Assembly: GCF_003334355.1 (NCBI RefSeq)
Contig: NZ_QOWP01000056.1
DNA length: 10,236 bases
Source of the DNA: Escherichia coli
GTDB lineage: Bacteria; Pseudomonadota; Gammaproteobacteria; Enterobacterales; Enterobacteriaceae
Strand: one strand, 5' to 3'
Positions 2,764 through 6,442 of the stretch are shown here, one piece after another. Every line of letters starts with the position of its first letter. Positions within the stretch are counted from its first letter, which is position 1. The position numbers and the translations under genes were made by a program. The notes under the pieces were generated by a model. The model was not told the DNA's origin, ran no database searches, and saw only the letters and a list, made by a program, of their open reading frames with translations.

Positions 2764-4017
2764 ATGCTGGAACAAATGGGCATTGCCGCGAAGCAAGCCT
2801 CGTATAAATTAGCGCAACTCTCCAGCCGCGAAAAAAATCGCGTACTGGAAAAAATAGCCGATGAACTGGAAGCACAAAGCGAAATCATCCTCAACGCTAA
2901 CGCGCAGGATGTTGCTGACGCGCGTGCCAACGGCCTTAGCGAAGCGATGCTTGACCGTCTGGCACTGACGCCCGCACGGCTGAAAGGCATTGCCGACGAT
3001 GTGCGCCAGGTGTGTAACCTCGCCGATCCGGTGGGGCAGGTAATCGATGGCGGCGTACTGGACAGCGGCCTGCGTCTTGAGCGTCGTCGCGTACCGCTGG
3101 GGGTTATTGGCGTGATTTATGAAGCGCGCCCGAACGTGACGGTTGATGTCGCTTCGCTGTGCCTGAAAACCGGTAATGCGGTGATCCTGCGCGGTGGCAA
3201 AGAAACGTGTCGCACTAACGCTGCAACGGTGGCGGTGATTCAGGACGCCCTGAAATCCTGCGGCTTACCGGCGGGTGCCGTGCAGGCGATTGATAATCCT
3301 GACCGTGCGCTGGTCAGTGAAATGCTGCGTATGGATAAATACATCGACATGCTGATCCCGCGTGGTGGCGCTGGTTTGCATAAACTGTGCCGTGAACAGT
3401 CGACAATCCCGGTGATCACAGGTGGTATAGGCGTATGCCATATTTACGTTGATGAAAGTGTAGAGATCGCTGAAGCATTAAAAGTGATCGTCAACGCGAA
3501 AACTCAGCGTCCGAGCACATGTAATACGGTTGAAACGTTGCTGGTGAATAAAAACATCGCCGATAGCTTCCTGCCCGCATTAAGCAAACAAATGGCGGAA
3601 AGCGGCGTGACATTACACGCAGATGCAGCTGCACTGGCGCAGTTGCAGGCAGGCCCTGCGAAGGTGGTTGCTGTTAAAGCCGAAGAGTATGACGATGAGT
3701 TTCTGTCATTAGATTTGAACGTCAAAATCGTCAGCGATCTTGACGATGCCATCGCCCATATTCGTGAACACGGCACACAACACTCCGATGCGATCCTGAC
3801 CCGCGATATGCGCAACGCCCAGCGTTTTGTTAACGAAGTGGATTCGTCCGCTGTTTACGTTAACGCCTCTACGCGTTTTACCGACGGCGGCCAGTTTGGT
3901 CTGGGTGCGGAAGTGGCGGTAAGCACACAAAAACTCCACGCGCGTGGCCCAATGGGGCTGGAAGCACTGACCACTTACAAGTGGATCGGCATTGGTGATT
4001 ACACCATTCGTGCGTAA
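2764..4017 (+). CDS. proA: Gamma-glutamyl phosphate reductase (glutamate-5-semialdehyde dehydrogenase)
   Basis: 417-aa [35 protein letters not shown]..., recognised as ProA. AGGAG 2751-2755 precedes the ATG; 11-bp gap after proB indicates an operon. Confidence 0.96.
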
Positions 4018-4022
4018 ATAAA

Positions 4023-4088
4023 ACCGGGTGATGCAAAAGTAGCCATTTGATTCACAAGGCCATTGACGCATCGCCCGGTTAGTTTTAA
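4023..4088 (+). terminator. Long-loop stem structure downstream of proA followed by a short U-run; possible proBA terminator overlapping the thrW promoter region
   Basis: ACCGGGTGATGC (4023-4034) pairs with GCATCGCCCGGT (4067-4078): 12 bp with one G-U, 32-nt loop, then TAGTTTTAACC. The loop is too large for a classic terminator, so this is weak. Confidence 0.3.
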
Positions 4089-4131
4089 CCTTGTCCACCG
4101 TGATTCACGTTCGTGAACATGTCCTTTCAGG

Positions 4132-4207
4132 GCCGATATAGCTCAGTTGGTAGAGCAGCGCATTCGTAATGCGAAGGTCGTAGGTTCGACTCCTATTATC
4201 GGCACCA
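4132..4207 (+). tRNA. thrW: tRNA-Thr (anticodon CGU)
   Basis: 76-nt sequence GCCGATATAGCTCAGTTGGTAGAGCAGCGCATTCGTAATGCGAAGGTCGTAGGTTCGACTCCTATTATCGGCACCA with encoded CCA; anticodon loop carries CGT; matches E. coli thrW. Confidence 0.96.
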
Positions 4208-4224
4208 TTCAAACATCTCCCCAA

Positions 4225-4245
4225 GTCTACTAAAGTCTTTCAAAA
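4225..4245 (+). repeat. Direct repeat copy 1 (GTCTACTAAAGTC + YYTCAAAA) between thrW and int; candidate integrase arm-type or accessory-factor site
   Basis: 13-bp core GTCTACTAAAGTC at 4225-4237 is identical to 4288-4300; flanking CTTTCAAAA vs CCCTCAAAA. Confidence 0.7.
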
Positions 4246-4287
4246 CCCCTTATAATCCGCGTATTAAAGCCCCGTTCGTCTTTTGAC

Positions 4288-4308
4288 GTCTACTAAAGTC
4301 CCTCAAAA
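4288..4308 (+). repeat. Direct repeat copy 2 (GTCTACTAAAGTC + YYTCAAAA)
   Basis: Identical 13-bp core, 63 bp downstream of copy 1. A perfect TATAAT hexamer (4251-4256) lies between the two copies. Confidence 0.7.
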
Positions 4309-4372
4309 TCTACGGTCAGATGGGGGTACTTATGGGGGTATTTGCTGTTCGGTTTAGTGGAGGTACCCCCAA

Positions 4373-5587
4373 GTGAAACTCAATGCCCGTCAAATAGACA
4401 CAGCCAAGCCAAAAGAGAAGGCTTACAAGCTGGCCGATGGTGGCGGTTTGTATCTCTTGGTAAAACCTAATGGAGGTAAATACTGGCGACTTAAATATCG
4501 TGTAGCTGGTAAAGAGAAGCTATTGGCACTAGGTGTGTATCCTGAGGTTACTCTAGCCGATGCTCGGGCAAAACGTGAAGATGCGAAAAGAGGTATCGCT
4601 GGTGGTATCGATCCGATGGAAGCGAAACGAGAGGAAAAGATTGCCCGGGAAACGCAGTTAAACAACACCTTCAAAGATATTGCCCTTGAGTGGCACAGCA
4701 GCAAATTAAAAAAATGGTCTGCTGGTTATGCTTCAGACATCCTCGAAGCCTTCAACAAAGATGTGTTCCCTTACATTGGCAAAAAACCAATCGCCGAAAT
4801 CAAACCACTTGAACTTCTGAATGTGCTGCGGCGCATTGAGGGGCGCGGTGCTACAGAAAAAGCCAAAAAAGTGAGGCAGCGGTGCGGGGAAGTTTTCCGC
4901 TATGCAATAGTCACTGGTCGCGCAGAGTATAACCCTGCACCAGACCTTACTAGCGCGATGCAAGGCCATGAATCTAATCATTACCCTTTCCTTACAGCCA
5001 AAGAATTACCTGATTTTTTCAAGGCATTGTCCAGTTACTCAGGAAGCGCATTGGTTGTTATGGCGGCTCGTCTACTGATTATCACAGGCTTGCGGACTGG
5101 CGAACTACGTGGCGCATTATGGGATGAAATTGATTTCAACAAGGCTCTCTGGGAGATACCCGCTTCACGTATGAAAATGCGGCGGCCTCATATTGTGCCA
5201 TTGTCTGAGCAGGCTCTTTCGCTTATTGGGAAGATTAGAGAAATAACAGGCAATTACCCTCTTATGTTTCCCGGGCGCAATGATCCAAGGAAAACAATGA
5301 GTGAGGCCAGCATAAACCAAGTGTTTAAGCGCATTGGCTACGCTGGACGTGTAACTGGTCATGGGTTCCGGCACACTATGAGTACGATTTTGCATGAGCA
5401 GGGCTATAACACCGCGTGGATAGAAACGCAGCTCGCTCACGTTGATAAGAACTCAATTCGTGGCACATACAACCATGCGCAATATCTGGATGGAAGGCGG
5501 GAGATGCTTCAATGGTATGCCGACTATATGGATTCTCTCGAGCATGGCGGAAATGTGGTGCATATGGTGTTTGAAAAACACGCATGA
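4373..5587 (+). CDS. Site-specific tyrosine recombinase, P4-type integrase family
   Basis: 404-aa ORF with GTG start, GGAGG 4359-4363. N-terminus KLNARQIDTAKPKEKAYKLADGGGLYLLVKPNGGKYWRLKYR is typical of the P4-family integrase N-terminal arm-binding domain; C-terminal GHGFRHT...RGTYNHAQY carries the H-x-x-R and catalytic Tyr motifs. Sits immediately 3' of a tRNA. Confidence 0.92.
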   Translation: MKLNARQIDTAKPKEKAYKLADGGGLYLLVKPNGGKYWRLKYRVAGKEKLLALGVYPEVTLADARAKREDAKRGIAGGIDPMEAKREEKIARETQLNNTFKDIALEWHSSKLKKWSAGYASDILEAFNKDVFPYIGKKPIAEIKPLELLNVLRRIEGRGATEKAKKVRQRCGEVFRYAIVTGRAEYNPAPDLTSAMQGHESNHYPFLTAKELPDFFKALSSYSGSALVVMAARLLIITGLRTGELRGALWDEIDFNKALWEIPASRMKMRRPHIVPLSEQALSLIGKIREITGNYPLMFPGRNDPRKTMSEASINQVFKRIGYAGRVTGHGFRHTMSTILHEQGYNTAWIETQLAHVDKNSIRGTYNHAQYLDGRREMLQWYADYMDSLEHGGNVVHMVFEKHA

Positions 5588-5840
5588 AACAACTGGACAA
5601 GTATACAGAGGTTTACTAAAGTATAGGGGAGTAGATTGATAAAAACTCACAGAGGATTACTATTTAACAGTTAGCCCTGGAGAAGGGCAATCGCTCTTTT
5701 AACAACGAAGATGGAATCTTCTACGCAGCTGAAAAGCTGGATGCTCTTTAACAGCCTTTGGTGCTTTCCTGATGCAGGAAAGAATAGGGATACATGCACC
5801 TTTACAATGCATGTAATGATTCATCCATGAGGCTGCGGAT

Positions 5841-5863
5841 CGCTGACAAAGCGCAATTGCTCT
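5841..5863 (+). repeat. 23-bp direct repeat copy 1 (CGCTGACAAAGCGCAATTGCTCT) with palindromic GCAATTGC core; candidate operator
   Basis: Identical to 5954-5976. Part of a 26-bp imperfect dyad TGACAAAGCGCAA|TTGCTCTTTAACA. The right arm GCTCTTTAACA recurs at 5743-5753 and, with one extra T, at 5692-5704. Confidence 0.8.
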
Positions 5864-5953
5864 TTAACATTGATGTGGGCGGGATGGTTCGTCCCGCAGT
5901 GACCGATAGATTTCTATCGGGAAACATACAATGATTCAAATATGAATCTACGG

Positions 5954-5976
5954 CGCTGACAAAGCGCAATTGCTCT
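5954..5976 (+). repeat. 23-bp direct repeat copy 2 (CGCTGACAAAGCGCAATTGCTCT)
   Basis: Perfect copy 113 bp downstream of copy 1. Similarity extends upstream imperfectly (ATGAGGCTGCGGAT vs ATGAATCTACGG). Confidence 0.8.
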
Positions 5977-6238
5977 CTTGCCTGCCCACCATGCCCTGAA
6001 AAAGGGCGTTCTTTAAAACTACTGGATGTCACGCCTAATAGCGTGATCCTGCCGAAATGCAGGGTAGCTCTACCCTTGTGGAGCAAACAAACCAAAACAA
6101 TCTGACTATCTTTTATAAAAGACCGCAATATGTTTTTCATATTGTGGTCTTTGGCGTATTCGACATTTGATGCAAATAAAACTCTCGCCATTCGTTGCAG
6201 GAGGGAGTTATTGCGTCATTAGTACAGGATATTAATAA

Positions 6239-6442
6239 ATGGCTAATTACAATTCATTAATTCGTCTCTCTGAAGTTCAAAGGCGAACTGGTTATAGCAA
6301 AGCATGGATTTATCGTCTTATTAGTCAGGGGAGGTTCCCTAAACAGGTAAAAATTGGAAGTCGGGCAATTGCTTTTGTTGAGTCTGAAATAGATGAATGG
6401 ATTGAGAAGTGTATATTAGAATCTAGAGACGAGGTGGCCTGA
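6239..6442 (+). CDS. alpA: AlpA-family phage regulatory protein (Xis/Vis-like winged-helix DNA-binding protein)
   Basis: 67-aa ORF MANYNSLIRLSEVQRRTGYSKAWIYRLISQGRFPKQVKIGSRAIAFVESEIDEWIEK...; helix-turn-helix segment and E-I-D-E-W motif characteristic of AlpA/Vis family; typical position downstream of a P4-type integrase. Confidence 0.85.
   Translation: MANYNSLIRLSEVQRRTGYSKAWIYRLISQGRFPKQVKIGSRAIAFVESEIDEWIEKCILESRDEVA

Follow-up and report, generated by a model that had tools for sequence, protein, structure and literature searches.

A probable recombination arm between thrW and the integrase gene of an EcCIMP1-type chromosomal island in Escherichia coli

The spacer between the threonine tRNA gene thrW and a tyrosine integrase gene (int) in a 10,236-nucleotide stretch of Escherichia coli DNA (contig NZ_QOWP01000056.1, assembly GCF_003334355.1; hereafter the window) carries two sets of short repeats, which raises the question of whether these are sites for proteins acting on the DNA or parts of a structure in the int mRNA. 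The gene order of the window is proB, proA, thrW and then the 404-codon int gene, which has a GTG start at 4373. We propose that the segment 4191-4375 is probably the P' arm of the left attachment site (attL) of a chromosomal island, i.e., a recombination scaffold with arm-type sites for the integrase and sites for an AlpA-family factor, which would also be the control region of int.

The preliminary description of this DNA had drawn attention to a 13-bp perfect direct repeat (4225-4237 and 4288-4300), a TATAAT between its copies (4251-4256), and an 8-mer present twice (4321-4328 and 4333-4340) with its inverse (4364-4371) lying between the GGAGG at 4359-4363 and the GTG at 4373, and all of these are present. 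The 13-mer, GTCTACTAAAGTC, occurs exactly at these two places only across the whole window; it extends to 21 nucleotides, GTCTACTAAAGTCYYTCAAAA, with two mismatches, and the copies are spaced 63 bp apart. The 8-mer, TGGGGGTA, whose inverse is TACCCCCA, belongs to a 12-bp tandem repeat, ATGGGGGTAYTT, at 4320-4331 and 4332-4343. Conservation of the two sets extends to 84 related loci, so that the repeats are indeed kept in related islands.

An EcCIMP1-type island in thrW

Judged by its sequence, the region belongs to a phage-inducible chromosomal island of the EcCIMP1 type inserted in thrW, of which it forms the attL P' arm. The thrW site between proA and the island, the core and the int-alpA module all match, and of the 211 bases that run from attL into int (4190-4400), 210 are identical in EcCIMP1 from E. 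coli MP1. The elements that define the locus are these:

4132-4207, plus strand: thrW, tRNA-Thr(CGT), found by ARAGORN and by the Rfam tRNA model (71.8 bits); its 3' end is the attachment core.
4191-4207, plus strand: core (crossover) region, in which TCCTATTATC at 4191-4200 is the EcCIMP1 core as published (PMC11773190).
4359-4363, plus strand: GGAGG, Shine-Dalgarno sequence of int, read from the sequence.
4373-5587, plus strand: int, tyrosine integrase with an N-terminal arm-DNA-binding domain and a GTG start (Pfam Arm-DNA-bind_3, Phage_int_M and Phage_integrase).
6239-6442, plus strand: alpA, helix-turn-helix protein of the AlpA/excisionase family with the same protein accession as the EcCIMP1 alpA, and a candidate binder of the TCTAC units described below.

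According to PMC11773190, EcCIMP1 of strain MP1 is inserted in a tRNA-Thr gene between proA and yagU, is mobilised by the helper phage Kapi1, excises and is transduced, and requires both int and alpA for excision, circularisation and transfer. EcCICFT073 was also considered as the identity of the island in the window and was ruled out, the island being of the EcCIMP1 type. In strain CP53 (locus L089), a 15-nucleotide part of the core, CTATTATCGGCACCA (4193-4207 in the window), recurs exactly at the right attachment site (attR), the two copies lying at 20094-20108 and 37193-37207; the island is 17.1 kb long there, and the window covers its left 6 kb only.

The Arm-DNA-bind_3 domain spans residues 3-88 of the integrase (E = 2.9e-28), and central and catalytic domains are detected as well. 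Among phages, its nearest relatives are the Sf6/IntS-type integrases, at 49% identity, IntS being that of the prophage KplE1. The island's AlpA is 38% identical over 39 amino acids to TorI, whose sites in KplE1 are taken up below.

The G-rich motif on both arms

Three copies of the G-rich motif lie between the second block of 13-mer-type repeats and the start codon, at -52, -40 and -9 relative to the latter:

4320-4331, plus strand: P'1, putative integrase arm-type site, ATGGGGGTACTT, assigned from the repeat pattern, the att-arm distribution, family conservation and covariation.
4332-4343, plus strand: P'2, a second putative arm-type site of the integrase, ATGGGGGTATTT, spaced 12 bp from P'1; it doubles as the 5' arm of a predicted hairpin.
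4364-4372, minus strand: P'3, putative inverted integrase arm-type site, TTGGGGGTA on that strand, located after the Shine-Dalgarno sequence and before the GTG; it doubles as the 3' arm of the hairpin.

The distribution of the exact motif in CP53, which carries the same island, is telling. In 40.4 kb of this genome TGGGGGTA occurs five times, with 0.47 occurrences expected by chance, and every copy lies in an att arm: three at attL and two by attR, as a tandem pair 12 bp apart (ATGGGGGTACTT TTGGGGGTATCT) to the left of the attR core, at a distance of 62 bp. This attR pair recurs in MP1, and a comparable layout, namely a pair, about 60 bp of AT-rich DNA and then the core, is found in Citrobacter (Thr tRNA), Yersinia (Gly tRNA), and Photorhabdus and Xenorhabdus (Arg tRNA), in each case downstream of a related integrase. 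Such duplication of the pair 17 kb away, at the other recombination junction, points to arm-type integrase sites, whereas an RNA leader element would have no reason to be there. Hence, the TGGGGGTA copies fit best as putative arm-type sites of the integrase, two direct and one inverted, the last abutting the GTG.

The right ends were located through this arm motif. A search by the tRNA end among 80 genome loci returned no attR with either the last 18 nucleotides (up to two mismatches) or the last 12 (exact), which is explained by islands longer than the 10-kb flank, a 1-nucleotide deletion in the core of locus L012, and short cores; in ABU 83972 (L001), a 16-kb range around the attL match contained no attR. 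The int gene of the LF82 island is a pseudogene, and of its P' copies one has been lost while the other carries mutations (TTGAGGGGA), in agreement with decay of the sites once int is dead.

Two further sequences near these sites deserve mention. At 4589-4607, within the int reading frame at +216, the window has a degenerate sequence, GAGGTATCGCTGGTGGTA, in place of which at least 13 relatives have AGGGGTATCGCTGGGGGTA (e.g., L008, 10217-10235), a 12-bp-spaced pair that matches the arm-type motif and encodes R-G-I-A-G-G-I; this in-frame pair may stem from codon usage or may represent an additional site for the integrase. Between P'2 and P'3, the heptamer GTTCGGT (4347-4353; GTTCAAT in the Arg-tRNA relatives) is conserved across the family.

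Sites and the arm-binding domain change together

A scan of one genome per species yielded 80 loci with integrases 63-98% identical, and the family set comprises 84 loci (63-100%). The geometry of the arm is rigid across this set. Where a tRNA was detected, its distance to int is almost always 160-175 nucleotides (range, 154-198; 165 in the window), and this near-constancy holds over six targets, Thr-CGT, Arg-TCT, Arg-CCT, Gly-CCC, Ser-TGA and SeC. A spacing of exactly 12 bp separates the direct copies in 83 of the 84 loci, their usual positions being -52 and -40, and, by our reading, the inverted copy lies within about 10 nucleotides of the start codon in 80. The inverted copy is 13-30 nucleotides further upstream, off the Shine-Dalgarno sequence, in L051, L055, L079 and L086, and two direct plus two inverted copies are present in L042, L046, L055, L071 and L079. 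In the Morganella loci L043 (9961-9975 region) and L050, an inverted copy directly follows copy 2, besides the one at the start codon; in L043 copy 2 and this adjoining copy form a perfect palindrome, GGGGGCATGCCCCC.

The motif itself varies by lineage, with GGGGGTA, GGGGGCA, GGGGGCC/T, TTGTATAG and TTGGTAT as variants, each of which recurs in every copy of its locus (e.g., TTGTATAG/CTATACAA in L086). The variation is mirrored in the arm-binding domain of the integrase, where four residues separate the two major classes, by counts that ignore shared ancestry:

Residue 29: L in the GGGGGTA class; E in the GGGGGCA class.
Residue 31: K or N in the GGGGGTA class; F, V or A in the GGGGGCA class.
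Residue 50: L in the GGGGGTA class; R in the GGGGGCA class.
Residue 53: L in the GGGGGTA class; F in the GGGGGCA class.

The combination L29/L50 is found in 48 of 50 GGGGGTA loci and E29/R50 in all 24 GGGGGCA loci. A direct contrast is offered by L007 and L021, whose integrases are 96% identical over residues 100-400 and only 62% identical over residues 1-95, with arm motifs that differ accordingly. This suggests that the N-terminal domain and its sites were exchanged as a unit, with the catalytic domain and the thrW target staying in place.

The 13-mers as parts of TCTAC-type arrays

The 13-bp repeat proved to be part of a larger pattern. At 10-bp phasing, its copies are the first units of two blocks with two and three units, five in all:

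4225-4245, plus strand: block 1, two TCTAC-type units of about 10 bp (GTCTACTAAA, GTCTTTCAAAA), at -148 to -128 from the start codon; holds the first 13-mer.
4288-4318, plus strand: block 2, three TCTAC-type units (GTCTACTAAA, GTCCCTCAAA, ATCTACGGTCA), at -85 to -55; holds the second 13-mer.

These positions can be set against those of the TorI sites in KplE1, I1;2 at -156 to -129 and I3;4;5 at -93 to -66. In the variants within E. coli, both 13-mer copies show the same changes in their flanks, position 13 being C in both, A in both or T in both. Arrays of TCTAC units are absent from attR. Counted across loci with enough downstream sequence, an AlpA homologue accompanies TCTAC-type units in 33 of 38 loci and the variant TCAAC-type in 1 of 10 (Fisher p = 1e-5, ignoring phylogeny, with about three TCAAC lineages). 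No AlpA homologue was detectable within 7 kb downstream of int in the TCAAC-type islands L026-L036, L045, L052, L053, L063 and L074-L076, which presumably use another excision factor. In the phage-inducible island EcCICFT073, overproduction of AlpA alone triggers int-dependent excision (PMC6092414). Together, these observations suggest that the TCTAC-type units are probably bound by the excision factor of the island, a member of the AlpA family. Where the preliminary description had offered arm-type or accessory-factor sites as options for the 13-mers, the latter fits better. Our confidence in AlpA as the factor is only moderate, since it could act indirectly.

Related sequences occur nearby. 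Just past the int stop codon, in 5611-5636, GTTTACTAAAGTA is a copy of the 13-mer with two mismatches, followed by an inverted ATCTAC at 5631-5636; it occurs in ABU 83972 as well and may be a further site for the TCTAC-binding factor. Upstream of alpA, a repeat of about 55 bp (5810-5863 and 5925-5976) lies inside a minus-strand open reading frame (5802-6191), in a segment that ABU 83972 lacks. The core of the repeat, the 23-bp CGCTGACAAAGCGCAATTGCTCT, stands without mismatch at 5841 and 5954, with a weaker third copy at 5675.

The int promoter

One more element lies between the two blocks:

4251-4256, plus strand: TATAAT, candidate -10 of the int promoter, with poor -35 candidates (TACTAA at 4228-4233).

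Its proposal as part of an int promoter is plausible, as the hexamer is conserved and stands out in this lineage as the best -10. It is invariant in seven E. coli variants, has a position-weight score of 8.8 and is the top match in 22 of the 84 family sequences; we thus regard it as a fair candidate for the -10 of int. A simple sigma-70 scanner had found no full promoter in 4000-4500 and, in the same scanning, no terminator between thrW and int. It was replaced by a position-weight scan, which was validated by its recovery of the mapped KplE1 promoter (score, 10.9). Across the family, the best -10 falls in two zones: in the Thr-tRNA group it is the TATAAT zone around -123, and in the Arg-tRNA group a zone around -46, between the G-runs, where the promoter TTGAAA-18-CATAAT scores 11.7 and is placed as in KplE1. 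The upstream candidates in the window (4208-4267) score 8.8-9.6, approximately the 75th to 90th percentile of random windows, the TATAAT with its weak -35 being the chief one among them. A search for the consensus of the integration host factor (IHF), with up to one mismatch, found none in 4208-4372, after which the notion of the TATAAT as an IHF site was dropped, without proof.

A scheme for the arm and the points against it

In the scheme that we favour, the N-terminal domain of the island integrase would bind P'1-P'3, and the tandem pair at the island's other end (P1 and P2, approximately 62 bp from the core) would act as the second arm. Arm-bound integrase would bridge to the cores, giving an integrative or excisive complex, and an AlpA-family factor on the five TCTAC units would bend the arm and thereby direct the reaction towards excision. 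As the span from thrW to the start codon of int holds P'1-P'3 and the TCTAC units alike, occupancy by integrase probably represses int, amounting to negative autoregulation of a promoter that is probably the conserved TATAAT at 4251-4256.

We infer the pairing of proteins with sites, the autoregulation and the position of the promoter, and several points weigh against them. The site assignments rest on homology, distribution and covariation, and the covariation and AlpA statistics ignore shared ancestry, with few independent lineages behind them, roughly four in the case of GGGGGCA and roughly three in that of TCAAC. One lineage, Affinibrenneria salicis (L022/L073, a single genome), alone combines the GGGGGTA motif with an E29/R50 N-terminal domain, a mismatch that could be due to recent recombination or could mean that the specificity rule does not hold everywhere. 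The effect of AlpA on excision could be an indirect one, exerted by activating transcription and not by bending the DNA. In EcCICFT073, another phage-inducible island, AlpA had no effect on Pint-lacZ activity (PMC6092414), so that the TCTAC units may serve excision only. Finally, the arm zone of the window, where a KplE1-like -10 would lie inside P'1, scores 2.6 at best versus 10.9 in KplE1; with so poor a promoter there, autoregulation would need a roadblock downstream of the start site or another promoter.

The predicted hairpin over the ribosome-binding site

The TGGGGGTA and TACCCCCA copies also permit a stem in the int mRNA, which, in the preliminary description, could enclose the Shine-Dalgarno sequence and suggested translational control of int. 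Folding of 4310-4400 does predict a hairpin (-30.1 kcal/mol), though a mildly unusual one (z = -1.9; 8 of 200 shuffles fold as well), and for 4262-4420 the z-score is -1.0. Copy 2 pairs with the inverted copy in an 11-bp core over part of the GGAGG, and the GTG pairs with the tail of copy 1. With a long leader, opening of the ribosome site would cost 13.2 kcal/mol, the highest value among the 11 genes of the window including int (4.6-13.2), and the cost falls to 10.1 when the 5' arms are mutated and to 8.0 when transcription starts inside copy 2. A start near 4263 or read-through from thrW would yield a leader with all three sites, in which the hairpin can form.

One possibility, which we consider unlikely without dismissing it lightly, is that the arm-type sites have a second use: transcripts reading through from the TATAAT or from thrW would fold into a hairpin that occludes the Shine-Dalgarno sequence and keeps integrase low. 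This shares all of the evidence for arm-type sites and gains from the upstream position of the window's only promoter candidates, from the 3-5 kcal/mol that the hairpin adds to the opening cost, from the GTG start of int, and from the failure of the scan to find a terminator between thrW and int. However, the opening cost is no outlier, as two other genes of the window reach 12.5 and 13.1 kcal/mol, and the stem in relatives ends where the protein-site motif ends, which gives no sign of selection for pairing as such. Were it true, only transcripts that start inside P'2, or on which the hairpin has been opened, would be translated; the geometry of the recombination sites would thereby insulate integrase synthesis from a strongly transcribed tRNA gene, and the logic would extend across the KplE1/EcCIMP1 integrase family.

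That the hairpin is the main function of these repeats, with one TGGGGGTA copy pairing with TACCCCCA to bury the Shine-Dalgarno sequence and the GTG and thus control translation of int, is a good deal less probable still. In its favour are the predicted pairing and opening cost given above, the fair promoter candidates of the window, all of them upstream (4208-4267), so that the leader would hold both arms, the inverted copy near the start codon in 80 of 84 relatives, and U-A to C-G changes that preserve pairing in 22 sequences. The last point loses its force in a 59-sequence alignment, where the helix of copy 2 with the inverted copy (95.6% paired; covariation score, 0.191) and that of copy 1 with the inverted copy (96.6%; 0.170) exclude each other and yet show the identical 22 switches. 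Such equal covariation speaks for three sites drifting together and is not evidence for one stem. Further, a stem would need only one 5' arm, whereas two copies are kept at a fixed 12 bp and change together, and in about 10 Xenorhabdus sequences a G-to-A change in both direct copies is uncompensated in the inverted copy. A tandem pair of the motif also stands at attR, which is 17 kb away from int and yields no int mRNA, and in L051, L055, L079 and L086 the inverted copy is off the Shine-Dalgarno sequence. The mapped start of KplE1, inside its P'2, lies between the direct and inverted sites, which leaves the direct copies out of its mRNA; the CATAAT between the G-runs of the Arg-tRNA relatives likewise predicts an mRNA without the 5' arm. 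An Rfam scan matched the tRNA only and no leader RNA, the fold z-scores are weak, the covariation is not specific to one helix, and the motif is not confined to the leader. The stem as main function thus gives way to the attR pair, the concerted change of all copies and the tracking of the integrase N-terminal domain. The hairpin would form only if transcription starts upstream, and it may then be a mere by-product or act as an additional brake on translation, which the comparative data do not require. The preliminary interpretation is in this sense half right, being partly supported in its protein sites in an att arm with a plausible promoter.

A swapped assignment, with the TCTAC repeats as arm-type sites of the integrase and the G-rich motifs bound by an accessory factor or host protein, has to its credit that arm-type sites were an option raised at the outset for the 13-mers and that the TCTAC units stand in tandem at about 10-bp phasing like P'1-P'3 of lambda, but it is scarcely credible given that only the G-rich pair is on both arms while TCTAC arrays are absent from attR, that the integrase N-terminal domain is tracked by the G-rich motif and not by the TCTAC unit, that the TCTAC or TCAAC type tracks the presence of an AlpA homologue, and that the positions match the TorI (TCTAC) and IntS (G-rich) sites of KplE1, respectively.

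Distribution and neighbours of the island

The region is present in some sequence variant in 1038 of 5426 complete E. coli genomes, about a fifth. In matching genomes, the genes downstream comprise an AlpA-type helix-turn-helix gene, antA/antB, ash, a TOPRIM/DUF927 primase gene, P22-like DNA-ejection genes and perC. The P22-like DNA-ejection genes, along with lytic-transglycosylase genes, form a conserved cargo of the island in CP53 (L089, 29648-33219), ABU 83972 and MP1 (L090, 5281-9994), beyond the window. The thrW gene is also a hotspot of tandem insertion: a vat island with a truncated integrase pseudogene comes next in MP1 (L090, 340-508, minus strand) and in LF82 (L005, 3000-3182), with the loss of one P' copy and the mutation of the other mentioned above.

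Implications

For EcCIMP1-type satellites, the reading as a P' arm provides a site-level map of attL and attR and predicts the bases whose mutation would lock the island in or out. It would also make the module layout of KplE1 common to a large integrase family that uses at least six tRNA genes across Enterobacterales. The joint movement of the arm-binding domain and its sites as a swappable module might help in annotating island ends and in engineering orthogonal integrases. As a more general point, inverted repeats by the start codon of an integrase gene are not necessarily RNA switches.

Comparison with known systems

Leader hairpins that sequester a Shine-Dalgarno sequence resemble the window in the predicted stem over part of that sequence and the start codon. 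They differ in that the stem arms of the window are copies of a motif also present at attR and in that the covariation is not helix specific.

In the attP/int region of the satellite phage P4 and at intI of the pathogenicity island PAI I536, an int promoter is embedded in an att arm by a tRNA gene, and Int represses its own gene, as cited in PMC2951348 and PMC7286903. Vis, the P4 factor of the AlpA family, likewise brings Int down, reportedly through binding to the int mRNA, and in PAI I536 IHF acts at PintI (both as cited in these papers); the arm in the window has no IHF consensus with up to one mismatch. The integrases of P4 and PAI I536 are more distant, and the likeness is one of layout.

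EcCIMP1 is an element of the same type at the same site, sharing 210 of 211 attL-int bases, the AlpA accession and the core TCCTATTATC. As far as its available main text goes, PMC11773190 defines the ends and the core only, does not use the word attL and does not mention arm-type sites.

The closest characterised layout is the recombination module of KplE1 (CPS-53) and its relatives Sf6, HK620 and CUS-3 (Panis et al. 2007, 2010; PMC2951348). In the attL of KplE1, PMC2951348 places five TorI sites, in the two groups I1;2 and I3;4;5, and four arm-type sites, P'1 to P'4, and describes an intS promoter with its -35 adjoining I5 and its -10 inside the IntS arm-type site P'1; IntS and TorI both repress intS (PMC2951348). 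The K-12 sequence of KplE1 has GGGTAAAAA and GGATAAAAT, 11 bp apart, and then the inverted TTTTACCC and TTTTTACCC, of which TTTTTACCC (P'4) abuts the ATG; at attR, two copies of GGGTAAAAT stand 12 bp apart, 58 bp from the core. KplE1 and the window thus have in common a co-oriented tRNA and int (161 and 165 nucleotides apart, respectively), five small sites grouped 2 + 3 at nearly equal distances from the start codon (TorI sites in KplE1, putative factor units in the window), direct arm-type sites 11-12 bp apart followed by inverted ones, the last of which abuts the start codon, and an attR pair about 60 bp from the core. They further share integrases of 49% identity with the same three domains and a small helix-turn-helix factor of the AlpA/TorI type. 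The two differ in the arm motif (TGGGGGTA in the window and GGGTAAAA in KplE1), in the factor unit (GTCTAC-type versus GTTCG-type), in the number of P' sites (three versus four), in the tRNA target (thrW versus argW), and in the kind of element (phage satellite versus prophage). The promoter placement of KplE1 has no good counterpart in the window, which instead has a perfect TATAAT between the factor blocks. The layout as such is already known from this prophage, and is of the kind seen in P4 and PAI I536; a KplE1-type architecture in EcCIMP1-type satellites and their wide integrase family, not previously described, is recognised here.

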